Below the pieces are notes generated by a model. That model saw nothing but the letters and a program-made list of their open reading frames with translations, made no database searches and was not told the DNA's origin. Positions 84-33,477 of a DNA stretch of 33,477 bases are shown here, piece by piece. Made by a program: the position numbers and the translations under genes. Position 1 is the first letter of the stretch; the number at the start of each line of letters is the position of its first letter. Source of the stretch: Psammoneis japonica (Eukaryota); NCBI GenBank assembly GCA_008632985.1, contig QPGO01000090.1, positions 310,001 through 343,477 of the forward strand. The letters are read 5' to 3'.

Positions 84-1796
84 TCATGTCCATGGGAGCC
101 AGTTCACATGCATGGCATTCCCAAGAACAATGTAGATTAAACAATAATACAGGACAAGGTGTCCCCTCTCAACCTTTGATTCGTTATCTTTGTCGGTCCC
201 CTGAATAAGGAGAGTTGTCATGTACCAGTAAATGGCAGGGCACGACGAGAAGATGAGTCGTGTCGAAACTTGTACGTGTGCGACCGTTGCTCCAACAAGG
301 GAAAAAGCTGATAATACCGCAAAGTGTGTCAGAACGTGAGGTCCCATCAAAAGGGCGCCTTCCTCGGAGGCCGACGCGGTTGAGGAGGGTGCTACCGAAG
401 CCTCCAACGCAAATATCGCCCATTGTATTATGTGAATGGGACGCTTCCAAGAAACTGCTTCGTATGCGCGCTCAGAGTTCGAGGGAGAAGTTTCTCTGGC
501 TACAAACGACTTCCAACTGGCGTGAATCCATGTCAGCGAACCAGAAAACCCCAACCACAAGACAGGGGTAGCTAGAAAAAGTTTGGAATTTGTTTCAATT
601 CATAATAGCGTAGAAATCCGACGTTCCAATGCTTACGTTGCACGTATCCGTAGAGAGAGAAGGGAAGTAGATTCGTTTCTTCTTGTGCCGTTGCGCACCA
701 AGACGGTTGCATTGTTGAGTCTGACAAACAATGAAACGAGTAGCCTCGCCAGTCATGAAAAATGACTGGTAGAGCGACAATCACTGCTAGCATCAAATAA
801 TATGCTGCTCTGACAAGTGACCATGTCAAAGATGTTCCGCTCTGAATCGACTTTAGAAACGTGGCAACATTCCATATCAAGAGCCACAGAGACGCCATTG
901 TCCCGTTTGAGCGGACAAAGGATGCGATTGTCCACAGGAGAGTAGCCGCCACTACATTGCCTCGAAACGCAACATTGTATCCCAGAAAGGTTAGAAAAGC
1001 AAAGGATGATTCCGAGTAGGCTGTCGAAAAGAAGACGCTAGCCGGATTGATGCAAAAGAGAACGGCGCAGACTAGAGCATGGTGAAGACAGCGTTGCACC
1101 TCGGTGGGAGTCAAGGTGCTTGGGTCATTCGAGGTGTTTCGTGCCGCCACTCTATACGTCAAATCATGCAACACCAATGATGTCATTACGAACAAGATGA
1201 AATTGACAAGGATGGCTGCCAACACCGATACCCCTTCAAACGATGGTGGTAGGGCTACACCAGGAATGATCCACACCAAGAACAAGGCGGTGTAACGAAT
1301 CATCAATGGAAACAGCGGGAAAAAGGCATGTGCCTGTTCCGACAGGACAAAAAGATCGTCATTTTCACAAGTCTTGTCGTCTCCGCAATGGCTTTCCACA
1401 TCCACCAGAACGGGTATTGGTTTCCGCGCATCCGGATGCACCGCAAGTCTCAGAAAACGAGCAGCGTCCCATCTTGTAAAGGGCGTCAGCATAACATTGT
1501 AGATTTGTGTTAAGAATTTTGACGACTCCATGTGCGTTGTATCTGTGGCGCACTCCCTGAACAATGGATCCCAATGCCGGTCGTGGTGTGCTCGTTTGTC
1601 ACAAGCGTCTCCGTGGAGGCAAAAGCACGGGGGACCGTCGTTGAGCGGAGGTCGAAGCGAAGTACGTCTTTCCCGGGGTCAAAAAAGTCGCCAACAACAG
1701 CAGCTGAAGCAACCATACCCAAACAGATCACAAGACGTGATGCTATTGAAAATCGAACTATAAATGTCGGGAATCTTTCATTGAATCGGACGGCAT
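84..1796 (-). CDS. PIGV: GPI mannosyltransferase 2 (PIG-V/GPI18), split by three apparent 1-nt deletions (~1762, ~1645, ~577)
   Basis: Motifs 'FSIASRL', 'FTRWDAARFL', 'HAFFPLFP', 'FCINPASVFFSTAYSES', 'YVQRKHWNVGFLRYYELKQIPNF', 'HVQVSTRL', 'HVNWLPWT*' lie across ORFs 1510-1731, 572-1564 and 84-560. Adding one base at each junction (two A-runs; the ~1645 site is only approximately placed) joins them into one frame. Confidence 0.88.
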
Positions 1797-1996
1797 TTTA
1801 GCAGCCACTGCCGGAGATTCGTCATGATGAGCCTTTTACTGTGCCGTAGGAAGAGAGTCAATTCTGTTTCGCAACCTTAAGGGATTGTTCTAAGCTGCAA
1901 TGTCGAGCTCAATATCTATTGCCAACAAGCAACCATCAACTCTGGGTGCCACCTCATATCTTTTGCTCATGGTGGTGCCGCACTCTCCATCACTCG

Positions 1997-2017
1997 CTCG
2001 CTTCTCGCTTCTCGCTT
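1997..2017 (+). repeat. (CTCGCTT)x3 short tandem repeat at the left edge of the Copia remnant
   Basis: ctcgcttctcgcttctcgctt read directly. Confidence 0.8.
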
Positions 2018-2039
2018 CCTCGGTGTAGTCACGAGTCGA

Positions 2040-4220
2040 ATCACGGATGACCCTCTGTGTCAGGTGTCAGGCGGTCTCCACAGCTGTGACTGCAGCAGCG
2101 CATCCACACACAGCAATCACCAAAATGGAAGCAAAGAAACAGAGGCAATTCGCTTGTTCAGTGGCCAAGAAAAAAAAACACAGAAGGGAAAGATTGTGAG
2201 GTGCACGCAGAAGGAATGCACTCAAGGCATGCATCTGGCGAGGTCCGCTGAAGATGTGGCACGCAACGACTTCAGCAAAGAAGAGCTGAAGCTGGGAATG
2301 GAGATGAGGACAGCAATGCCAAAAGATGACAAATCAGACTGCCAGGAAATGTTGCTGCAGAAACAACAAAAGGAAAGGGAGCTGGAGTTCCAGCACAAGG
2401 CAAAGCTTCATGACTGCAATGACAAAGTGAGGCAGTTCAAAAAGAGCAAGATTGCAGCACTTGCCAAGACATTGGATGAGACTGCTGCACCAAGCAAATG
2501 AAACAGAGAGTGCAAGCTGATCCCACCCATGCAAAGATTGGGGACAATCTGATTGGCAGCAGGAAACTGGATGCCAGGGGACAAAATCATGTGCAGAAAT
2601 GAGATGAAAAGATGTCTTGTTGGTGGATGGTGACAATGCCAGCGCAGATGGCTGCCACCAGATCTGATTGATCTGCCCATTGAAGCCAAAGCAGAGGAAC
2701 TGCATGGCGTGGATTGCAGCTGGTCAACAATCAACCAGAGACAAGCATGAACCAAGTCAATGAAGACTTTGGTGTGCAGATGAAATCATCCTTGACAATG
2801 GTCCAACCCCCTCAGCGTGGCAGCTGGCCGAAGACCAGTGCACAATGTGTGCAGCTGGCAAAGGTCAAGACAGACCTTTCCATGAGTGCAGGAGCAGACA
2901 CTTTAGACAAGGACTGCACCATGCCTGGATGGGGGATGTGAAGCTTGGATCACAGAACGCAGCAGCAAACATTTTAAGTTTGAAGGATGTGAAGAGCAAG
3001 TGTCGTGTTGCACATGACAACTGAGTGGTGGATGAGTTGCAGTTGCTGGAGGAGAAGACCAGCAAGAGAGCTGCGGTGTTCAAAGTTGATGACATTCTTG
3101 GACTGCATGCCTTTGAACCAAGCAAGAAGTTCTTTGACTGCACAAAGAACTCCAAGAAAGCAAGTTTCATGTGAGCATGCTGTGTCTAAGACAGAGAAGA
3201 AGCTCAACAAGAAGAGCAACAAGAGCAACAAGAAGTGCAGGAGTGCATCCAGTCATTCTGATGGTGGAGCAGGACTCTGCAGGCTGCTCCAAGAGGGCCA
3301 AGCAAGCACTCAGGCTGTGCTGCAAGGCTGGAATCCCCAGCGTGAGAGATTGAAGCTGTTTTTGCAATCAAACCAGGTGAAGAATCTGTTCATGGCACCT
3401 GAAAACATGGACAAAATGGTGGACAATCAGGGGGCACCTGTTGACATGCTGAAAAGAAAGACCAAACACCCACATCAATCCCATGACATGACAACATTGT
3501 TGCAATCTCACCTGAGACATGTGAGAACAGAGAGAAGGTGCAACCCCACTCTGTGCTGACACATTGTGAAAGCAAGCAGAGTGAAGATCCTGCATGTGGT
3601 TGTCATGACAATCAAGTGTCAATCAAGTGCAAAACTGCAATCCAAGAAAACATGCTGATGTGTGCAACACATTGGACACGACACTGCGCCAATGCAACAT
3701 GGCTTTGTTCAAGCAGATTGACTTTGTTGAGTGCAATCCTGGGTTCAAGCTGTCTGCAAATGCCACCAGCAACCATGTTCCTGAAGTTGAACAAAGTGTC
3801 AAGACCATCAAGGAGCAAACTGGAGCCACAGTGCACCACATGCGGGTGAGGCAATGCCCAAGCTGATGTGCAAGTGTGCCATGATCAAGAATGCCATGAT
3901 GGCAAGCATGTGCCCACAAAAGAAAAAATCTTGTCTGATGCATGCAGTCCACACACTGTCATGCAAAGAAGAAACCTTGACCATGACAAGCACTTTGCAC
4001 ATGGATTTGGCACATTTGTCGGACTCCTGTTCAACATTGAACACAATGGACATGCATGGTGTTGACAGTGCACACCTGCAACCACATCTTGATGTTCCCA
4101 AAGGCAGTCACTGCACAATGAACCTGCACACAGACAAGCAGCTGAATCCCTGCAAGTGCACTGCCACACCCCTGACCAGTTCTTGATGAACTGACAAAGT
4201 TGAGGATGAGGCCAGCCATT
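2040..4220 (+). mobile_element. Degenerate, 3'-truncated Ty1/Copia LTR retrotransposon of the diatom CoDi type (gag, protease, pre-integrase, integrase; no RT/RNase H seen)
   Basis: Collinear frame-hopping remnants: 'MPGWG..ANILSLKDVKSKCRVAHD' (~2920-3018, protease region), 'RAKQALRLCCKAGIPSVRD/LKLFLQSNQVKN..GAPVDMLKRKT' (~3293-3463, GAG-pre-integrase), 'TLDTTLRQCNMALFKQIDFVECNPGFK', 'HVPEVEQSVKTIKEQ' (from 3774), 'SDACSPHTVMQRRNLDHDKHF..FGTFV', 'NTMD..AHLQP..GSHCTMNLHT'. These match the order and wording of diatom Copia polyproteins as recalled. Confidence 0.85.
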
Positions 4221-7200
4221 TTCCTTTGGATCTTTGCAGTTGAAACTTGCTCTCACAGCAACACATCTGAAGGTCAAGAAAAGCCTTGACCTGCCAGCAA
4301 CCCATTCCTCACTTCCTTGTTCAGGCACCTGGAGAACTGGATCTTGTTTTTCTCATGTGCAACTGAAAGATGCATGGTGACATCCACTGAAGTGCCAGTT
4401 GTTTGAACACAAAGAGAAGGACTCTTTTTGTCTGATGCAGAGGCAAATTTTGATGTGCTCCAGCTCCAGGTGTGACCTCACAGTGCTGAACTGTGACATT
4501 GAAAGTGTTGTGAGACATGCCACATGTTGCACGTGCACATTTCTGCATGACTTTGGTGGAATTTTGCATCATTCTTTTGCAGTGCAGTTGTTGAGCTGTT
4601 CATCAAACAATTCTTTGAAGATGTCTGCAGAATGGCACAGGCACAGATGGAATTTTCAAAAGTTTTGGCTGTGCAGACCTTTGATGTGCCACAAACTTGG
4701 TTGGTTGTTCAAATGTAAAAGGGCTGGAGCATGTTTTCTTTTCCTCCATTTGCCTTCCAGGGACTTGGCTTCTGCCAGTGTTCTTCAGCCACAGTGCTGG
4801 CAAAGAAAGAGAAAGACCAAGTTCCCAGTTTTTTGCAAATCAGTGCAACAGCTGCTCAAAAGCTTCAGGGGGAGGAGGACAATTGAGAACCTGGTTGTCA
4901 ACAACTTTGGCTGCAGAGATGACTGGGTCAGGGCAGTTTTCTCTAAAGTCACAACAAGAGAGGGGACCACTTGGTCTTGGGAAGAAGCTTGATGGCAGGA
5001 AAATGTGGGTCATGTTGCTGGCATTGAAAAAATGAGTTCCTTGGTCACTCCAGGCACACAGACAAGGGTGCTCCAAGAATGTTCTCAGGCAAATGACTGT
5101 GCAAGACACTGCAGTTGAAGATTGTCATCATTGGACAATGGCATTTGACAACACAGAAACAAAGGGGTCAAGCAGTTTGAACATGGGCCCCATTTTGAAA
5201 GTGAGCCTTTCATGCAGAAAGCACAAAATCCAAAGCTCCATCATCTCAATGGAAAAGAAGTGCTGCAATGTGTCCACAGACATGGTTGCAGGTGAACATT
5301 TAAAGACAAAGCAACTGGCGGTCGAATGTTCAGTGTCAATGACCACACAACAGAAAAGTGGTCAATCAATTGACCAGGAGTCAATCACGAGGCAGATCTA
5401 AATCCAGAATGTCATGTTTGGTCACACAAAGCAATTTGTGTCAAGTCCCATGGCCTTCCAAATTCATTGGACACTGTTTTGTGTGCAAAGACCACTTGCA
5501 ATTTTGGTCATTTTGAAAGTGGTCATCCCCAAACCACAACTTCATCTTGTCTGTGTGCCTCCAGTCTGGGTGAGGGCAGGGCAGGGGAGTGACACAGATG
5601 GATGCTGGTCAAGCCAACATTTGCTTGTGATTTTTTTGGAATCATGGTGGGTGCCACTGCTTTTCAAAGAGGACCTGCACAGGGCTTGGGTGGCTTCCTT
5701 GGTTGATTGACAAAAAGTTCTTCAATGACACAGAGCCAGGCCCCCACAAGCAACCACCGAGAGATGATCTTGGACAAAATGTTAAAAGTGTTGCGGAGGA
5801 CAGGAACGACTGGATGGCAGAAATGAGCTGAGTGCAAAGGCAAAGCCGCAAACATCATTGGACATGATGCCATGCATTCTTTCAATTTCTTGCACATTCA
5901 ACACTGGCAGGGCTTGCTTTTTGGTGCTGCATGTGTCCACTCTTGGCCAAGGAATCTGAGAAAAGGCCTCAACTGAGCTGCAGGCCAGGGGTCATCTGCA
6001 AGAAACAATGTTCCTGCAATCATCCCCACCTTCTTGCACAGCTGCACTCAGCTCACTCCAAAGCAGATCAAGCAGAATGCCGTGGCCTGTCAGCAGCAAC
6101 AAACCGGGGAAATGGCACACTCCTCATGAGAGCAGCATCCCAGCTAGAAACACTTGATGGCACAACATCATGACATCAAGTGTTGGGTTTTAAAAGTTCT
6201 GTTTGAGGCTTGCCAAGTCAACAGTGTCTTGGAAAAGATGTGTCACATCACTTGCATTTTTTGCACAGACAAAACAACTGGACCTGGGAAACCTCTCCTG
6301 TCACACACAGTTAGAGTGTTTCCTTGGTGTCTGCTTGTAACTGAGAAATGGTTCACTTTGCCACACACCACTTGCCTCAAATGACCAAACCAGCCATGAA
6401 AGAAAAGGCATGAGCCAACGCCACCAACAAGGCCACCAAAGGCTTCATCTGGGATGCAAAAAATGAACCAATCATTTGTTGTGTCTGGGGCAAAAATTTG
6501 CTCTGCAAAGTTTGACTGAGAACAGCCCACATCATTTTGTGAACAGCCATCATGTCCAAAATCCTGTGCTGCCTGCAAGCTCAACCCACAATCCATCTTT
6601 TTGAGTTGTTGCTGAGATCTGGCCTGAAATCTGCCTTGCTGGCAGAGCATGCAACAATTGCAGGGAACAGTGTGGCTGCATGAGAGAGAGAGAAAGAGAG
6701 CATGTGCAGGATCCTTTGACTGTGAGTCAACAAGTGTTTCTGTGCCTGTCAAAGCCGCTGTCAACAACAGAGTGGTCTGCGTGCAATTGTGAATGTCCCC
6801 TTCCCTTGCTCTGACACATGTGATTTTTTCTAGCCAGGCATCAACAAGAGACAAATCTTCCTGTTGGAATGATGGAAAACACCCCTGACAGATCAACTTG
6901 TGCCTGTCACACATTGAGCCAAGAACAGCAGGACGAACCCAGCACTTCGCCAGTTCTGCATCCCAGCATTTTTAACAAATGGTTTTGAATGGTCAGGGCT
7001 TGGGGCTTTTGGGTCAGGGGCCAGGGAGTGGAACTTTTAGCAAAGCTCCTGTTTGGGATGACATTAAAAGCAGGTGTGACTGATCTAACAGTTTATCTGT
7101 GACATGACCGAGTCAACCCATGAGGAGTTGGCGCCCTGGGATGAAGTCGCTATTCTCAGAACAGCCACCTTGGAAGGTGTAACAGAGATTGAGCTGATGG

Positions 7201-14703: not shown

Positions 14704-14949
14704 TAATTGCATCTAAAGTTTACATATTTCTCTTGCCGTTCTGCTCTATAGTAGTGTCACGTAGTCAGGAGGAAATTTGAATTCCTAAAGATAGTCTACG
14801 GAAGACTTGAAGCGAGCGAATGAATGATTGAGACACCGCGCCGCCGCCGGTAAAGTCGTGGGTCGTCTGTCCAGCCAGCGACCCGGCATTGTCGGCTTCC
14901 GTCTACTCTCTAGAGTCGAAATTCTTTTCACGCCATGCGTTGACCCGCT

Positions 14950-16430
14950 GTTGAGGTGATCGCTTTGAACAGAACCGGTTGTGGACCTGTGCACTGTTGG
15001 AGCAGCAACTGCATTCTGGTCATCAAAGTTGGGTTGACTGTTGTGGAGTTGGGCACCCCCATGGTGTGCTGGTTTCTCCATCAAAAGGTGCTGCGAGGAG
15101 AGAAAACAGTCTTTTTCACAGCACTTGCCAGTGGCCCGGAGGCCCAGAAGGCAAAGTGTGGAAAAGCTTGCTTGGCGCTCGCTGGCGCCAATTGATGTGA
15201 AAAGAAGTGCTGGGTTGGGCAAACAATGACAAAAAAAGCAAAATGGCTGATTGTTTTTTTTTTTCAATGTGTTGAGTTGTTGTTTCTGGATTTTTTGGCG
15301 CCTTCTTGTTGCATGACCACAGCAAACAGCTTTGGTCACATGAGGCATGGTGTCAGCAGATGTCACAATCATTTGAGCACTGCAGAGAAATGCACACAGT
15401 TGCGGGTTTCTCTGTGCATGTGTGCATGTCTTTCTTCATTGATGTCCTTTGCTGCAGTTGACAGTGTGGATGAAAGGACCTGGAGACACTCATTTTCACC
15501 CTTGCCGCACACACACACCAAAAACAGCAACAGCACTTGACTGAGCAACTCATCAGGCCAGCTGGGAACTCCACCCATGATGAGGACCCAAGCAGGTGCT
15601 TGTTGCTTCCAACTGGTGTCTCTCACAAAACTGGGGATGTTTTGTAAATTTTGTGAATCTGGCATGAGAAATCAATGTGAGAAGGGCAGAGCACCCAGAG
15701 CAAAGCTTGTGTTCTCAGCCTTCCTGCTGCAGTGAGCAGCCAAGAGCATCTTGTAAGACTGTGGGAAGAACAGCAAAAAAACAAGAGCAAGAGCTCCCGC
15801 TGTGTGTCTGCTTGAACTCAATTGACAGCAGAAGCAGCTGGGTTGTTGGTGGCAAACAAAACAAGGGGCAGCAGCTTTCCTGTGACAGCCACATGTGGGG
15901 GGAGAGGGGGTGTTGGAGAAACCTGCCTGGCTCCAACAAAAACAAGAAGAGAGCAGCACGCACATTGTGCACAGAGCCGCAAATCTGTGGAAACAGATTT
16001 TTCAGTTTTTGAACCTTCGCTGTGAAGGTGCTGACAAGGAGATGTGCAAAGGCTCAGGCCAAGGTTGCTGACAATGGCACAGGTGGTGCACCCTGTGATT
16101 TGCAGGGACCAGGGGTGCTGTGGCATTGGGAGAGGAGGGTGGTCGGGGAAAATTCTTGGTGGTGGAGCAGGTGCGTGCACGGTGGTCAAGGAAAATTGGT
16201 GGTGGAACAGGTGTGCAAAGTGCTCTTGGCAATGGAAAAAAGAAAGAGGGAACCAAAGTGTGGACAGACGGTTGGAAAAGGGAGTTGTCGGTGGCGGTTG
16301 GGTGGCGGAGCAGAGGGGTTTCTTGATGTGCGGAGTGGTGGGTGGCTGGGTGGAGAGGGCCATGGCGAAGTTTAGGCTGAGGATTTGGGAGGCCCAGCTT
16401 TGGGATTGGCTGTGTGGTGGGAGATGCCGA
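14950..16430. other. Island 2: CpG/TpA-depleted unclassified (probably repeat-derived) DNA
   Basis: Only 3 TA found by hand (GTAA ~15644, GTAA ~15754, TTAG ~16373) in ~1.5 kb; CG sparse; CpG-rich flanks. Confidence 0.9.
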
Positions 16431-25887: not shown

Positions 25888-27557
25888 ATGGCAACTGGTT
25901 CTAATAGTGGAATTGCAGGCAAAACTGATTATGGAAAATGGGATCGTGTGGCTTCTGATTTGATTGAGGATGCAGAGGCGGAAGAAGCACAGGAGGTCCA
26001 AGAATGTTCCAAGGCCTTGGGCTTGGACGGCAAGTATGCTCGAAGTCAAGCGGAGGCCGACGAGCGAGAGAAAGCAAAAGATGCTCTAGATACAAGGAAA
26101 CGCTTGGATCAGTATCAGCAGAGGCAAGAAAGTGTTATGCAAAGTCTGGAGGGACTTTTGTTGGAATGCTCAGAAAAGCCTGAGAAAGACAATGCTTCAG
26201 ATACAACTTCAAAGAAGGAGCCGCCTCATGTGGTTCGTGTCACTCGCGAAATGATGGATGCCTACAAACGCGTTATTACCATATCTAACACGAGCGGTAC
26301 CTCTCCAAAAGACATGATTGTCTTGACGCAAGACTTGAATCATTTGGAATCTGCCATGCCTGCCAATTCCATGCAGCAACCCAAGCAGTACAAGGACGAC
26401 GCAGAAAACTCGGTTCCAAACGAACAGACCCGCAAAGTCTTTGGACTTATCAAGGTATTTATAACCAATGTTCACAATTGCACTATTGTAGTACGATGCA
26501 AGCTCATTGCCGGTATGGTGGAAATGAGTCACTGCAGCAACGTGACTCTACGAATTGAAAAGGAAGCCACCGTTCCAACCCTGCAAGTGGATCTATGTCA
26601 AGATATTCATGTTCAATACCACGACTCACCGAGTGGCAAGCACATACCCAATCCTACCAGCAATAACATTATGTATTGGGGTGAAGGCAAGGATGATCGC
26701 ATCTTTCATGCGGGTGTAAGCAACATGAAGATTTCACTTTGGCGTGATGGTTTTGTCGAAATGGAAACAACCACGGATTACGAAAAGGATGGTGCGGTAG
26801 CTGTGGGTAACGCTTCTGCCGAGGAGTATCAGTTTGTCACCTCGGTGGTGGACGGTGACTTAGTGACTGAAAACGTCCTTCGTTGGGGTGCCTCCACGGG
26901 AAAGAATGTACGAGCCATGACGCAGCGAGAAGCAGATGCTGAAAAGGCCAAGCGAGAAAAGGCCGCCGCCATGGCAATCGATATGGCTGAAAAGTCGATT
27001 CGTTTTGAAGAAAAGAACAAAAGTAGCAAGGTACCGCAAGCATCACCCAAGCCTCAAGTAAACGAGACAGAAGTGGTGGAAGAAATTTATACATCCATGT
27101 CAAAGCAAGAAATCGAAAGTATTGTGAAAGAATGCGAAGAGAACAAGGCCCGCGGTAATGAGGCGTTTGGCTCTGGAGAGTATGCTCAAGCCGTCTTACT
27201 CTATACGCTTGCCCTTGACAAGGCTGAAGAACTTCCGGACCAAGATGAAAACTCTGCTGTGCTCCACTCTTTGCTCGCCACATTGTTCTTTCCAATCGCT
27301 CCGCGTCCTTTCTCAAGCTTGGTCACCATGAAAAGGCATTGGCGGATGCTTCGCGTGCTGTGGAACTGGAACCAACCTACGTCAAGGCTGTCTTTCGAAA
27401 AGGACTTGCGCTTCACGCCATGGGAAGGTACCAAGAGGCCATGCCTGTTCTGGCAAAAGCCCAAGAACTCGAACCAAAGAACAAGCAGATTGCACAAGCG
27501 CTTCAGTTTTGTGAAGTTCGTTTGACGCAAGAAATGAGAAAGCGTATGCAAGGTTGA
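25888..27557 (+). CDS. TPR protein with N-terminal DYxKWD motif and central CAP_C/cofactor-C-like beta-helix; apparent 1-nt deletion ~27258
   Basis: 'TDYGKWD'; 'VFITNVHNCTIVVRCKLIAGMVEMSHCSNVTLRI..PTLQVDLCQDI'; TPRs 'KARGNEAFGSGEYAQAVLLYTLAL', then shifted frame 'VLSNRSASFLKLGHHEKALADASRAVELEPTYVKAVFRKGLALHAMGRYQEA'. Confidence 0.85.
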
Positions 27558-27687: not shown

Positions 27688-28950
27688 TTAATCTTTAGAT
27701 GTCTTTTTTCTGTCTGATTTTGCCATTTTCTTTGCAAGAGCTATTTCTAATTCTTGGCTCTGCATGGCTACGGCCAAGGGATTGTCAGCTCTGGTGCTAG
27801 TAGTATTGTTCCTTGTTGACCTTGCTTGTAAAATGGTATCAATGGGCGTAACGCTTCCGCATTTACCGCAGTAAACGAGTTTTGCCTTGGATCCAACTTG
27901 CAGAAAGGTCTGGCAAGCGGGGCATTGGACTACTGTTGCGTTGCCCTTGGCGATTTGCTTCCAGGTGTGGTCTGTTCCACGAATGAGGAGTTTCTTGCCA
28001 TTGTATACGCCCACTTGCTGTTCACGCGTCGGACACTTCAATGGAGGATCATTTCTCGTTGTAGTATTTACTTTGAGATCTCGAGGAGCCGAAGATACAC
28101 TAGCCTTGTTTAAAGAAGGCTTGGTGGTGAGCTTATTGAGAGATGGAGGTTTAGTGGGTGCTGGTTTTCGTTTGTTCCTTGGAGGAGGAGATAGTGCGAT
28201 ATCTTCATCATTCTTTTCGGGGCGATTGTTGAGACGTTGTGATTCCTTAACCACATTCGAATATAGCGATTTAAGATCGTTGTTTTCGACAATGTTCTCG
28301 TGGTGTTTGCTGGAGGACGAAGTCTTTAGATCCCGTTGAGAAGCGGCAATCTGTGCCATAGCCTCTTGCTGCTCACGAAGAAACTCCGGATCATTCATAC
28401 AGTCTAAGAAACCGCCATCAGAATCATCCGATCCAGTTGTATTTACGCTGAAGTTAGTTGATAAAGATGCGGTGGTGCATGTTGCTTGGTCTTGAGCGTA
28501 AGAACTGGGTTGAGAAGCAGAAGAACCATGAAGCTCCTTGTCAGCACCACATGTGGATGATGAGCTGTTGAATTGCTCCATAATCTCCTGCTGTTGGCGA
28601 ATGAAATCCTCGTCTTCAAACAAGTTAACAAAACAAGTGTTGGAACTCATGTTCGTTGCATTTGCGCTTTCGTCTCCGTCATAGCTGCAGCTGCTGCTCA
28701 GCAGACTCGACGATGCCGCAGAATAGTGCTTCTTACGATCACCCCTGGCGGATGATTTGGAAACTTTCAAGGGTGAAAAGCTTGTACACTTTGCATCAAT
28801 ATTTCTTCTCGGCCTTCGGATCGGCTTAACGTCGCAATCCACAACAGTTCTTGGTACTTTTGAGTCACTTCCACTGCTGTCACGCCATGTCTTCGTAGTA
28901 TGGACCTGGTGTCTTTCGGGAGCTTCGTCTTTGTAAGTTGGAGATGCCAT
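27688..28950 (-). CDS. Hypothetical protein with C-terminal CxxC-x14-CxxC (LSD1-like) zinc finger; ORF open to 29040, probable start 28950
   Basis: Intact 450-aa ORF; 'QCPACQTFLQVGSKAKLVYCGKCGSV' at 27859-27924; two 'F..Q Q E.M.Q' helical repeats. Confidence 0.75.
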   Translation of the reverse strand: MASPTYKDEAPERHQVHTTKTWRDSSGSDSKVPRTVVDCDVKPIRRPRRNIDAKCTSFSPLKVSKSSARGDRKKHYSAASSSLLSSSCSYDGDESANATNMSSNTCFVNLFEDEDFIRQQQEIMEQFNSSSSTCGADKELHGSSASQPSSYAQDQATCTTASLSTNFSVNTTGSDDSDGGFLDCMNDPEFLREQQEAMAQIAASQRDLKTSSSSKHHENIVENNDLKSLYSNVVKESQRLNNRPEKNDEDIALSPPPRNKRKPAPTKPPSLNKLTTKPSLNKASVSSAPRDLKVNTTTRNDPPLKCPTREQQVGVYNGKKLLIRGTDHTWKQIAKGNATVVQCPACQTFLQVGSKAKLVYCGKCGSVTPIDTILQARSTRNNTTSTRADNPLAVAMQSQELEIALAKKMAKSDRKKTSKD

Positions 28951-29010
28951 TTCTATTAGCTGTAGATTGTGGCCGGAGTTTCCGTGACCTTCGACCTTGC
29001 CGTGAGAAAA

Positions 29011-30805
29011 GTGAAAGTGGTCGCGCAAATACCTTCGCATTTTGTGATGTTATGATGTGACTTGCGGGAATATCGAGATCGCGGTTACAAATCGAATTTT
29101 GTCATTTAAAATGAAACAAAAAGTGCGAACATTAAGTAAAATTGCAAGGGACATGCTAATAAGTAATTTTGAACTGATTTTCAATAGTAATTCGATTGCT
29201 TTTTTTATGCTTTTTCTTAAGAGACATAGATTCATTGGGATGACACGCTCGAACCATCAATTCGCAAAAAGACATGGAGTCGGGGGGCTGTACATCAAAC
29301 AACACAGTGTATGTAATGTAAGGTACAATTCTCAACGCGACATCCGACAACCTCCCATCTTGGTGGAGTGTGCCTGCAAAAAAGGCTGAAGGAATTTAAC
29401 TGTGGAGTGGCAGCAACTCGGAAACGAAAAAGAAAAAAAGAGAGAAAGAAGAGGAAAAGTCAAAAACAAAAGGGCCGGCACCACCAAGAAAAATGAGGCA
29501 GGAAAAATCCTGCTTGTTTGGTGCAGTTTTTCTGCACCAAAAGCTGACATTTGTTGCAGTTGTGTTGGAGTTTCACGACTTGCCGACCAGCAGCACATGT
29601 TCAGCCTCATCAACCCCAAACCCTGAACTCACTGTGTGGCTTGCAAACACATTGTCGGTGCTGTCAACCGCCGTTGCCATGTCAACTCGGGTGTGCAGAA
29701 ACTGGAAGTGTGAGAGCACAAAAAACCCACACAACTCAATCTGAGTTGCAGCACAAAAAATTTGCACATTGTCCACAATCACATCAGCATGTTTTCCACT
29801 GAAACTTTGTGCATCTGCACCATGAAAACCACCTCTGGCCTGATGCTCCAACACACTCCTTTGCACAAGCCGTCAACTGCTGACTTGCCGTGTGTGGTGC
29901 TGCACATGTCAAGCATCCGAGGGTGACACTTGGAACCCATGCCACCCAACACCATGTCAACCACTCTTCTGTTGATTCCCATGGGTGCATCTTCCACACT
30001 GCAAAAACTTTGTCTGTCTTTCCTGTGAAAACTGCCTCCAACCCCAATGTTCCAAAAGGTTGTGCTGCACTGGGTGTGCCATCGGCTGGATCAGGAGGAC
30101 TCAAGCAGGTCTCTCTTGATGCCCCTGGATGACACTCTCCCTGCAGGTCCCCCCTGCACACAAGTCAACTGCTGTCCAAATCTTGTGTGAGACCCTGTGA
30201 CCAGGTTTTTGCTTTTTCTGAGCATGCACAGCCACAGCCAGTCTTGCAACAAGCAGCGCTGTCCAGACAACTCATTTCCTGCAGCCCAGTTGCCAGCTGT
30301 TGCTGTCATGCAATGGCCCTTTTTTACCCAGCACAGGTCTGTGTTTTTTGCTCCTGGTCTGGTGTCATTTTTCCCTTGCTTCTGCTCTTTTCATTCTGGC
30401 TGTTGCTTGGGTTTTTTGTGCATTGACAAAACTTCTTCTGGCAGAGCTTTTCTTCAACCCAGCTTTTGTTGCTGGCTTGCCCCACTCCATTTGTCCTTTT
30501 TGCAACTTTTTTTGTCAAAAAAGCTTGGCGCATGTCTCAATCTGCCTGTCTTTGTTGCTCCACCCCTTGCGCTGTTTCTCCATGCTCAGAAGAGCTGTGC
30601 TCAACACAGCTGTGACCTTTTGCATGCATTTTTTGAGCCCATCTTGAGCAGCTCCCCAATCTTCTTATTTGCCTCACTCAACTCATGGCTGAAATCATGT
30701 CCTGACAACAGCCTTGTTGGCTGTTCTCTGATGCCAATGAGCCAAAAGGCCCCATGTCTGTTGTGTTGGTGGCAAAGTTGGCAAGGTTGTTGTTTGTGCT
30801 CACCC
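29011..30805 (+). repeat. Direct tandem duplication, unit A (CpG/TpA-retaining ~330-bp head, converted body)
   Basis: Shared blocks with unit B: gaaagtggtcgcgc, gcgggaatatcgagatcgcggtta, caattctcaacgcgacatccgaca, tgtggagtggcagcaactcgga, ttttctgcaccaaaagctgacattt, ttcattctggctgttgcttggg, ttgcctcactcaactcatggct. Confidence 0.92.
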
Positions 30806-30808
30806 AAC
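29345..30808. other. Island 3: CpG/TpA-depleted DNA
   Basis: 3 TA by hand count (TTAA ~29397, TTAC ~30325, TTAT ~30666) in ~1.46 kb. Confidence 0.92.
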
Positions 30809-32226
30809 GTGAAAAGTGGTCGCGCGAATACGTTCGGATTTTGTGACTCGCGGGAATATCGAGATCGCGGTTATAAATCGAAGTTTGTCATTTAACGAAA
30901 CAAAAAGTGCGAACACACTGGACATGCTGATAATTGATTTGAACTGTTCGTGTCGATAGTAACTAGTGCGTTTTTTATGTTTTATCTTAAAAGAGATATA
31001 GAATCATAGCGCTGACACGCTCGAAGCATCAATTCGTAAAAAGACATCATTTGAGTCTGGGGGCTGTAGGCCTTACAGCAGCACGGCACAACACGCACGA
31101 AGGGTGGTGTTTCAATTCTCAACGCGACATCCGACAGACCTCCAATCTTGGCCCTGTAAAAAATGCTCAAGGAATTTTAATTCAACTGTGGAGTGGCAGC
31201 AACTCGGAGAAGAGAAAGAAAAAAGAGAGAAAGAGGGAAAAGCAAAAAGAAAAGGGCTGGCATCACCAAGAGAAATGAGGCAGAGTGTGCAACACACATC
31301 ATGGCAGGGCACCACCACCACCAGGAAGGGAGCAAACTTGGGTCACATGTCGCCTGTGTGGCAAAATCCCACTTGTTTCATGCACTTTTTCTGCACCAAA
31401 AGCTGACATTTTTGGTGGTTGCACTGCTGGGCTGGTGTGCCATCATTGTCCAGGTCTGTGGGGTGGGCTCCAAGTGGGCAAGTCTCTCAGTGCTGGGTGA
31501 CTCTCTCCCCACAGATCTTCCTCCCTGAACATGAGCCAACTGCCCAAATCTTGTGTGGCCCTGTGGTCAGGCTCCTGCTTGTTTTGAGCATGCACAGCCA
31601 CAGTTGCTCTTGCAACAAGCAGCACTGTCCAGACAACTCATTGTTTGTGGCACCCTGTAAAATGCTGCTGCTGCTTCTGCTGGCACTGCTCTGACAACAT
31701 TGCCAGTTGTTGCCATTGTGTGCAATTGCCAGTTTTTCTGCCCACAGGTCTGTGTTGTTTGCTCCCAGCCTGGCTTCATTTTCCTTGTCAGTGCCCTGCT
31801 GCAAACCATGGCATGCTTCTGTGCCTTTCATTCTGGCTGTTGCTTGGGCTCTTTTTGTTGCACACCAGCTGACAAACTTCTTCTGGCAGAGCTCTTCTTC
31901 AACCCAGCTTTTGTTGATGGCTGCTTGCCCCCCTCTATTTTCCCTTTCTTCAACTCTTTTTTTTTTAACAAGCTCTGTGCATGTCTCTGTCTGGCAACCT
32001 GCTTTGTTGCTCCACCCCCCTCATGTGGTTTCTCTGTGCGCACCACCCCCCATTTCCAGCAGAGTGGGTGCCCTCAACACTGTTGTGACCTTTTGCCCTC
32101 ATTCTGCAAGACCTTGATCAGCTCCCCAATCTTGTTTGCCTCACTCAACTCATGGCTAAAGTGTTCATCTGTCATGGTGGCAAGGCAGTTGGCAAGGCAG
32201 TTGGCAAGGTTGTTTGTGCTTGCACC
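30809..32226 (+). repeat. Direct tandem duplication, unit B (converted sequence continues beyond it to the window end)
   Basis: Same blocks in the same order as 29011-30805. Confidence 0.92.
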
Positions 32227-33477
32227 AGTGGCAAGAAGGCAGCCACACATGCATGTGGTGTGAGCATTTTTGCACACTCTTCCTTGTTTCCAACACACAG
32301 CAACAGGAATTGTTGTCTTAAAACAGCAGGGGCACCTCATTTCTGGTTTGGTCCAAACAAGCTGTGGGGAGTTCAGAGATGGGCAAAAACGCAACTTTTG
32401 GTTGGAAGGGGTTGTTGTGTTGACTCTCCTGTTGCTGGTGTCTCTGCTCACAAGAAACTCTTTCCTCAGCTCTCTGCCCCACAACAAATGCACCACTGTT
32501 GCATCTCCTGGTTGTGCTGTGCTCACCACCTTTTTGTGGGTTTTTGTTGAGGTGGTCTCAAAGACCATTGTGTGAGCCACATGTTCATCACTCATCATGG
32601 CGTGTGCTGGCATGCTGGCTGGCTTCTGTTCTTGACAATTCTGTTTTTATTTTTCTGCACTGCAAAGGGTTCAGCAAATCAGAGGGTTTTGACAGTGTCA
32701 ACAAAAACTGTCTTGAGTCACCCTGTTCAAATGTCCATGAACTGCAAGACACAACCAAACTTGGGGATGCCTTCTTAAAACTTGTTGTGCTGTGCCAAGG
32801 GTCTGGCATCAAAAGATTGTCAGATTGCCTTTGGTGGCTAAGTTCAAAAAAGCAAGTCCTTTCCAAGATTTGAGTTTTGCATGATTTTTGTGCTGGTTCA
32901 CACCTTGGCCCCTGCTTCCTCTGAATGGGTGTTTTGGTGTGCAGAAGAGGAGTTTGGCATGTGTTTGCTGAGACAACAGAAGCTGAGTCATGCACAGGGA
33001 GCACAACCTTGTGAAACATCAATGAGAGGAAAATTTGTGAAAAGTCACCTCAGCCACCAAATGCTCACCCCAAAACTGCTTTCTCTGCCATCAGGTTTGT
33101 GAAAATTCTCCTGACCCTTCCTCCCCATGTGCAACTCATGCCAAACTTGCACCAACCACCAATCTGCCAGACATCCCCATTTACTGCAGCTCTCAACCAG
33201 AAATCATTTTTCACAATGCCAAAACCCTGCACCAACAATTGTTGTCTTTCTCAGCAGTGTTGCATCACAACAACTGCAGCATGCACAGAGCAGAGTCTGG
33301 CCACATGTCTCGGATGACTTCATGTGATCTGCTGATCTGTGCTGCAAAAAACAGCTGTGCAGAGTGTGCTCCAAGAAAGAGATTTTTGATTGTGGCAAAA
33401 GCCAGCTTTTCTTCCTCCTGTGCAGCTGTGCAGCAGTTGACAAAGGTCATTTGTTTGCATTGTGGAGGTGCACCCCC
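31140..33477. other. Island 4: CpG/TpA-depleted DNA, runs off the window
   Basis: About 11 TA and very few CG by hand count in ~2.3 kb. Confidence 0.92.
32179..32209 (+). repeat. 12-bp tandem repeat (GGCAAGGCAGTT)x2.6
   Basis: ggcaaggcagttggcaaggcagttggcaagg. Confidence 0.85.

Follow-up and report, generated by a model that had tools for sequence, protein, structure and literature searches.

The window analysed here is a stretch of 33,477 nucleotides from the diatom Psammoneis japonica (GenBank assembly GCA_008632985.1, contig QPGO01000090.1, positions 310,001 to 343,477 of the forward strand), and all coordinates below are counted from its first letter. In four intergenic blocks of the window, together about 9.1 of 33.5 kb, the dinucleotides CG and TA are nearly gone and TG and CA are about doubled. 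Two tandem units, A (29007-30807) and B (30808-32236), each combine a head of normal composition with a body that belongs to such a converted block. Between the two bodies, TG in one copy stands opposite CA in the other more often than other adjacent double transitions would predict. This excess of swaps is real and holds across alignments, and in simulations it is reached only if conversion continued on the chromosome after the duplication. The explanation that we favour, with moderate confidence, is a local, strand-symmetric mutational process in silent intergenic DNA that would turn TA and CG into TG and CA.

The tandem units and their alignment

Units A and B were delimited from direct-repeat families (D1-D6, D8 and D9) and from alignments. 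The head of A (29014-29460) has 21 TA and 19 CG in 447 bases; it holds the first ~30 bases of a minus-strand open reading frame (ORF; 27688-29040, ATG at 29040), together with the DNA upstream of it. The converted body of A follows (29461-30807), with 2 TA, 14 CG, 161 TG and 146 CA in 1347 bases. About 500 bases of this body, the A-only insert (29563-30061), are absent from B; the insert is TA-free and keeps about 10 CG. In the second unit the head (30813-31242; 20 TA and 27 CG in 430 bases) forms an unconverted island between two converted bodies, and the body of B (31243-32236) has 4 TA, 2 CG, 125 TG and 105 CA in 994 bases. Conversion starts at a homologous place in both copies, the last TA lying at 29397 in A and at 31178 in B.

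Two further observations concern unit B. The copied 5' end of the minus-strand ORF is found at 30813-30841 with ATC as its start codon, and is a dead gene start left by the duplication. At the end of B, near the duplication boundary, there is a perfect 12-base tandem repeat of 2.7 copies (32178-32209).

Heads and bodies were aligned piecewise, the body ranges being 29496-30812 against 31355-32236. The head alignment has 441 ungapped columns at 88% identity; the body alignment has 713 columns in two segments, one of 70 at 76% and one of 643 at 83%. The main count was restricted to columns at least 2 from a gap, which leaves 578 sites and 550 dinucleotide columns in the body. With this guard, the heads differ at 42 of 365 sites (17 transitions, 25 transversions) and the bodies at 107 of 578 (57 transitions, 50 transversions). 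Judged from the sequences of its copies, the A/B duplication is old.

TG/CA swaps between the copies

A first-pass annotation of this DNA had pointed to four places at which A and B carry opposite products. Two of these are upheld by the alignment: TG at 29511-29512 in A against CA at 31370 in B (17/20 flanking bases identical), and TG at 30355-30356 in A against CA at 31766 in B (16/20). The pairing of 30304 and 30307 with 31714 and 31717 is plausible, but depends on where the gap is placed at two extra bases of B, and it is not included in the count. The fourth, about 29305 against about 31085, is unsupported, the head stretch there being broken by three indels. Seven more swaps were found, at 29557, 29563, 30102, 30142, 30161, 30239 and 30634, giving a total of 9 without the gap guard. 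In five of them, 15 or more of the 20 flanking bases are identical. Besides the two given above, these are the clean swaps at 30142-30143 (TG in A, CA at 31510 in B; 15/20) and 30161-30162 (CA in A, TG at 31532 in B; 17/20), and one at 30239-30240 (CA in A, TG at 31605 in B) that has clean flanks (18/20) but lies within a run of mismatches.

The comparison proposed in the annotation shows TG/CA swaps to be commoner than other adjacent double transitions: under the guard they make up 8 of the 13 double transitions in the body, and the other 5 are spread over CC/TT (2), AA/GG (1), AC/GT (1) and CT/TC (1). The share of CA/TG columns is 22.5%, which gives a binomial P of 0.0028 for 8 of 13. Concordant TG/CA columns are far more numerous in the body, with 90 in agreement and 8 swapped.

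Conversion before and after the duplication

Two copies were simulated from an ancestor free of TA and CG, with rates taken from those sites of either the body or the head that lie outside pyrimidine-purine (YR) steps. With no conversion after the duplication, the simulation yields means of 0.06-0.50 swaps and 7.3-20 half-converted sites (TA or CG in one copy opposite TG or CA in the other), and at least 5 swaps are seen in 0 of 4000 runs at either rate. When each new TA or CG is converted with a probability of 0.8, randomly to TG or CA, the means are 4.1-10.0 swaps and 2.6-5.3 half-converted sites, the result varying with the background rate, and at least 5 swaps occur in 1548-3898 of 4000 runs. 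The observed body has 8 swaps and 5 half-converted sites. As runs without conversion never reach 5 swaps, the process must have acted on the chromosome after the duplication. The first-pass annotation had proposed action in situ on double-stranded chromosomal DNA, and this is supported, since the simulation needs post-duplication conversion and both strands are used (see below). The same annotation had also traced each swap to an ancestral CG or TA that was unresolved at the time of the duplication. This is not required, because a fully converted ancestor with re-conversion reproduces the counts. Its observation is confirmed in part, its view of an action in place is supported, and the ancestral state that it assigned to each pair is not needed.

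Given the shared border of conversion and the concordance of 90 columns against 8, most of the conversion of the body probably preceded the duplication. It is also conceivable, although we consider it rather unlikely, that TA or CG was still in place at the swap sites when the unit was duplicated and was then resolved independently in each copy. At least a third of the body would then have been unconverted at that time. The 8 swaps imply about 16 independently resolved sites, and the density in the heads predicts about 45-50 TA or CG per 550 columns; 5 half-converted sites are left in the body, and the CG kept in the A-only insert shows that conversion was gradual. However, the recurrent route from a fully converted ancestor gives equal numbers of swaps and half-converted sites, conversion begins at the homologous place in both copies, and 90 of 98 TG/CA columns agree. 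This alternative differs from the favoured model in timing only, and the two are inseparable without an outgroup.

The swaps could in principle arise by chance, as two ordinary transitions side by side, or from the misalignment of columns rich in TG and CA. Four of the nine swaps have weak flanks or lie inside mismatch runs, and P weakens to 0.03-0.04 under a stricter guard (guard 4: 5/9 double transitions TG/CA, P=0.026) or in an independent MAFFT alignment (5/10, P=0.039). Against this, when the 57 transitions are scattered at random, 1.20 swaps are obtained on average, and 8 or more in 1 of 20,000 runs; five swaps have at least 15 of 20 identical flanking bases; the comparison of the heads of A and B gives 0 swaps in 346 columns; and a similar double swap is seen in another contig of the sequencing run described below (29788-29791). 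A chance or alignment origin therefore appears very unlikely.

Composition of the converted blocks

The four blocks were delimited from sliding dinucleotide counts at 2027-7037, 14912-16372, 29398-30807 and 31179 to the window end. Their borders are sharp to within tens of bases, so that they form discrete regions against the surrounding DNA. TA is absent from the first block from 2027 on, and CG is rare in it only beyond ~2270. The second is single copy (contig depth 62-65), and its right part (15959-16372) has 0 TA and 12 CG. The last continues past the duplicated part as a converted tail (32237-33477; 5 TA and 3 CG in 1241 bases) that runs off the window end.

Comparison of 9,137 block bases with 22,099 normal bases shows CG at 0.59% in blocks versus 5.69% in normal DNA, TA at 0.28% versus 3.81%, and CA/TG at 22.94% versus 14.03%, with the same G+C in both (0.480 and 0.476). 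TA and CG together are thus down by 8.62 points and CA/TG is up by 8.91 points. Such a balance is predicted by conversion into TG and CA, and would not be predicted by avoidance alone.

The blocks are mutually unrelated. In a low-stringency blastn comparison of five block pieces, A versus B is the sole match. Local alignment of six pieces coded as purines and pyrimidines places 1 of 15 pairs clearly over shuffles, again A/B (109 versus at most 28), and five other pairs topped their 10-shuffle maximum by merely 1-4 points. The blocks are also unusual in composition: of the 132 windows of 500 bases here, 28 contain at most 3 TA and at most 5 CG, versus 0 of 2806 in 80 metagenome loci (732 kb) around relatives of the window's DUF1604 gene, and a second window criterion gives 34 of 132 versus 0 of 2806. 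These loci are short gene-rich contigs from varied eukaryotes, and serve as a control for rarity rather than as proof of absence in other diatoms.

Selection rather than mutation might produce such regions if they were functional, or tolerated, only when they lack TA and CG (as an escape from a nuclease or a binding protein, for instance), with TG and CA exchanging neutrally. The near-total and sharply bounded depletion would fit this. Nevertheless, the loss of TA and CG equals the gain of CA/TG, as mutation predicts, the blocks are unrelated to one another and without recognisable coding content, and the type of mutation has been directly measured in another alga, Bigelowiella natans, according to the preprint discussed below. 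Selection is accordingly judged highly improbable.

TA-free DNA has no TAA or TAG on either strand, and the blocks hold 90 ORFs of at least 70 amino acids (up to 242), which overlap across all frames. The 213-amino acid ORF at 30191-30829 has no protein-level relatives at E<=0.001 among 301 candidates. Gene callers may report such spurious long ORFs as orphan genes.

Conversion on both strands

Half-converted sites between A and B number 13 in the head and 5 in the body, and both products, TG and CA, are found opposite TA and opposite CG alike. In head and body together, CG stands opposite TG at 6 sites and opposite CA at 3, and TA stands opposite CA at 6 and opposite TG at 4. The alignment is poor around one of the head sites (29310/31096). 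Every block holds TG and CA in similar numbers (519/569, 152/125, 143/138 and 240/214), and no heterogeneity of TG versus CA was seen in the blocks at the 250 bp scale. Conversion is strand-symmetric. Long runs of single-strand conversion were considered and rejected, as TG and CA are unpatchy at this scale.

Within the heads, 11 of 17 guarded transitions are TA or CG versus TG or CA, the 13 head sites given above being the count without the guard. In 9 of these 13 cases TG or CA stands in A, whose head belongs to the intact gene.

This symmetry bears on the idea that a single-stranded intermediate was edited once during transposition (RNA by an ADAR-type enzyme, or cDNA by an APOBEC-type enzyme) and then inherited. 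Part of A is a multi-copy element, and ADAR-type enzymes prefer U before the edited A (Discussion of the preprint, 10.64898/2026.01.13.699255), which speaks for the idea. An edited RNA or cDNA would, however, give one product per parent dinucleotide, and the asymmetry so predicted is contradicted by the occurrence of both products from TA and from CG and by the balance of TG and CA. In addition, host promoter DNA and the beginning of a host gene are part of what was duplicated, which indicates a chromosomal duplication; conversion after that duplication is required; and the single-copy second block is converted too. Editing of an intermediate is therefore judged extremely unlikely.

Sequencing-run contigs and haplotypes

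One public sequencing run that contains the stretch, here called X1, was assembled into contigs from 31-letter words at a word depth of about 60. Its contigs match unit B and the block tail without a single base difference, apart from one 1-base gap in the tail. Miscalling of modified bases at true TA and CG as TG or CA in sequencing or assembly, which CpG methylation of diatom transposons (PMC9998398) might make thinkable, is scarcely credible given this match at word depths of 33-62, a longest X1 contig of 315 kb, which implies accurate reads, and the lack of protein remnants in the blocks, which fits old decayed DNA rather than intact miscalled elements.

Other X1 contigs differ from the window in ways that agree with the use of both strands. 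Among the 40 of 119 differences listed, CATG of the window is read as TGCA at 29788-29791, TG is read as CG at 29522 and 29694, and CA is read as TA at 29749 and 30233 and as CG at 30228. The contigs concerned may be alleles or paralogues. Contig depths in the bin 29486-30152 sum to 442, the figure elsewhere being about 60, and the bin holds several internal joints as well as loose ends. On the strength of this depth and these joints, the A-only insert belongs to a multi-copy family. Six consensus strings at loose ends of other insert copies (180 bases) contain merely 1 TA and 3 CG, and by their sequence the other loci of the family look converted too.

One X1 contig covers 30779-32475 with 0 differences at a depth of 37.6, and another joins 30808 straight to 32320 at 31.1, with flanking single-copy DNA at about 60. 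Going by these depths, probably just one of the two haplotypes carries unit B plus 84 bases. The same depth is found at a skip of 59 bases (32386 to 32446). The possibility that A and B are two alleles misassembled in tandem was rejected: the head of A is covered at full depth (57), and the A/B junction is spanned by one contig.

Loss of TA and of CG

Three block edges have 0 TA but have kept their CG: 2027-2270 (11 CG), 15959-16372 (12 CG) and 29398-29920 (12 CG). At these edges the loss of TA extends 240-520 bases past the loss of CG. Together with the A-only insert, they point to a TA conversion that is faster or wider-reaching than CG loss, and we read the sequence as the record of two processes that differ in reach. 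For blocks at steady state, 22.94% CA/TG against 0.28% TA would mean, as a rough estimate, that removal of TA outpaces its renewed formation about 80-fold; the equally rough figure for CG is about 40.

Residual TA was counted in the blocks at 2300-6950, 15000-15950, 29480-30800 and 31260-33477. The 26 that are left are biased to TTA and TAA: after symmetrisation the 5' neighbour is T in 58% (~30/52) versus 24% in normal DNA, with a P of about 2e-7 computed from readings that are not independent. TAT and TAC contexts are nearly gone. This context may reflect a neighbour preference of the converting activity.

The favoured process can be sketched as follows. TA would become TG or CA by an A:T to G:C transition, and CG would do so by a C:G to T:A transition. 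A and B would have arisen when a promoter-like head and part of a converted block were duplicated in tandem long ago, after which any leftover or newly mutated TA or CG would be resolved randomly to TG or CA in each copy. Random resolution per copy leads to TG in one copy and CA in the other. The loss of CG would be the ordinary decay of methylated CpG in silenced DNA, with the loss of TA being a separate, faster and TpA-specific process of the B. natans type, and both would be chromatin-targeted. The heads would escape as open promoter chromatin, much as CpG islands do.

Chemically, the loss of TA could proceed by adenine deamination in the TpA context or through a modified thymine that mispairs with G. 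Among modified bases, 5-formyluracil pairs with G, and 5-hydroxymethyluracil of dinoflagellates favours TpA. TpA is self-complementary, and for that reason sequence alone cannot separate the two routes. Transversions between the copies are also concentrated at TG/CA steps (41/303 sites versus 9/275 elsewhere in the A/B body), the commonest pairs being TG/TT (12), CA/CT (6) and CA/AA (4). Speculatively, the TG/TT and CA/AA pairs would result if a deaminated adenine were excised and an A were put in opposite the gap.

Evidence against the favoured process

Several observations weigh against the favoured process or limit the support for it. The number of swaps is small, with 5 clean sites and 9 at most, and their excess is weaker in the MAFFT alignment. 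The direction of every change is inferred, and the normal DNA that serves as reference in the mass balance is for the most part coding. X1 is possibly the source of the assembly itself, and hence provides supporting evidence rather than independent confirmation of the letters. As regards the origin of the blocks, 0 of their 90 ORFs of at least 70 amino acids reach the curated Pfam cut-off in a scan at E<=0.1.

The head of B is a particular difficulty, as it is unconverted (20 TA, 27 CG) between two converted bodies and has diverged by 12% from the head of A. If the process simply spreads over silent DNA, it should have reached this head. Furthermore, transitions outside YR steps are three times as frequent in the body as in the head (26/275 versus 6/190), so part of the divergence between A and B is not explained by this process. 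The excess may be due to constraint on the head of A or to a generally raised rate in the blocks. Non-YR transversions are 9/275 in the body and 9/190 in the head.

Genes and neighbouring features

The 33.5 kb window is gene-dense and intron-poor, and has long uninterrupted ORFs with eukaryotic Pfam families, namely PIG-V mannosyltransferase, GT47 exostosin, sulfotransferase, DUF1604/G-patch and RSN1 channel. Named relatives of the 761-amino acid DUF1604 ORF come from the pennate diatoms Amphora, Seminavis, Fragilaria, Cylindrotheca, Nitzschia, Fistulifera and Pseudo-nitzschia, with a top identity of 54%; the ORF itself has no identical entry among the proteins searched. As read from its genes, the window is most likely that of a pennate diatom. 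For the ORF adjoining the A/B pair, the nearest Atlas clusters are hypothetical proteins of Bacillariophyta (scores 0.87-0.88), which is a lead only.

At 27126-27366 and 28024-28657, X1 contigs are 90-95% alike, and their differences from the window are clustered inside two ORFs without a Pfam family. These variants may be divergent alleles or paralogues of diatom-specific genes.

Comparison with known systems

Repeat-induced point mutation (RIP) of fungi turns CpA/TpG into TpA by transitions, in place and on both strands, and needs duplicated DNA. The conversion described here resembles RIP in that transitions at a preferred dinucleotide affect both strands of the chromosome in place and ruin non-genic or repeated DNA. 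The direction is opposite, however, as TA is erased and CA/TG is enriched, and the single-copy second block (depth 62-65) is converted and the duplicated heads are not. Fungal RIP thus fails on direction and on the requirement for repeats.

Retroelements that are hyper-edited by ADAR or APOBEC enzymes are changed on a single strand, once, before integration, and carry an asymmetric footprint that is shared by descendants. Such editing has in common with the present case clustered transitions with a neighbour preference in mobile DNA. The footprint here is instead symmetric, and conversion continued past a chromosomal duplication.

Diatom transposons are reported to be CpG-methylated through DNMT5a (Hoguin et al. 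2023, PMC9998398). As in the decay of methylated CpG, CG is lost and TG and CA are gained in silent DNA, and the heads keep 19 and 27 CG. That decay leaves TA alone, whereas here TA is lost even more fully than CG. Methylated-CpG decay is therefore not the whole footprint.

The closest known case is the hypermutation of TpA to TpG and CpA in B. natans, described in a 2026 preprint (Mettrop et al., bioRxiv 10.64898/2026.01.13.699255). In mutation-accumulation lines of this alga, 230 of 231 new mutations in two integrated regions, one of a giant virus and one of a virophage, were A-to-G or T-to-C, and in viral regions all new mutations were at TpA, at a rate about 1000 times background. Genome-wide, 124 clusters were reported that are TpA-poor, rich in CpA and TpG, and mostly unannotated, and the authors propose an ADAT2-like adenine deaminase. 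The diatom blocks agree in the TpA target, the TpG and CpA products, the use of either strand, the action in place and the confinement to discrete regions, although here the change from TpA to TpG or CpA is matched as an indirect footprint and in B. natans the mutations were seen arising.

There are also clear differences. The host is a chlorarachniophyte there and a diatom here, and depletion there is partial (TpA 3.3% in the giant-virus region) compared with a TA of 0.28% in the present blocks. Sharp borders at promoter-like heads are seen here, and CG is lost too in the diatom blocks, whereas CpG has 0 occurrences in the preprint text. The targets in B. natans are recognisable viral genes, in contrast to the 0 of 90 block ORFs that reach a Pfam cut-off here. 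No report of joint TA/CG erasure or of TpA hypermutation in diatoms or other stramenopiles was found in the literature searched, subscription journals being outside its coverage.

In print, natural A:T editing of chromosomal DNA at TpA was found only in the chlorarachniophyte preprint. If the present reading is true, a second, unrelated algal lineage with a far fuller footprint would show that the process is no single-species curiosity. What stands out in this footprint is the spatial coupling with CpG loss, the sharp bounds at promoter-like islands and the activity after an old duplication. It would provide a clean system for finding the enzyme and the targeting rule, and a natural counterpart of laboratory adenine base editors.

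A wider proposal, which we put forward tentatively and regard as possible rather than probable, is that diatoms, or this lineage of them, have a chromatin-targeted DNA-editing defence that would erase every TpA from silenced DNA, beside the decay of methylated CpG, and would spare promoter islands to within tens of bases. Such a defence would keep flipping TG and CA, so that erased DNA diverges fast, and together with that of Bigelowiella it would be an old defence shared across stramenopile, alveolate and rhizarian algae. The finding in A and B belongs to the very recently described kind of process known from B. natans, and is worth follow-up at the genome scale.

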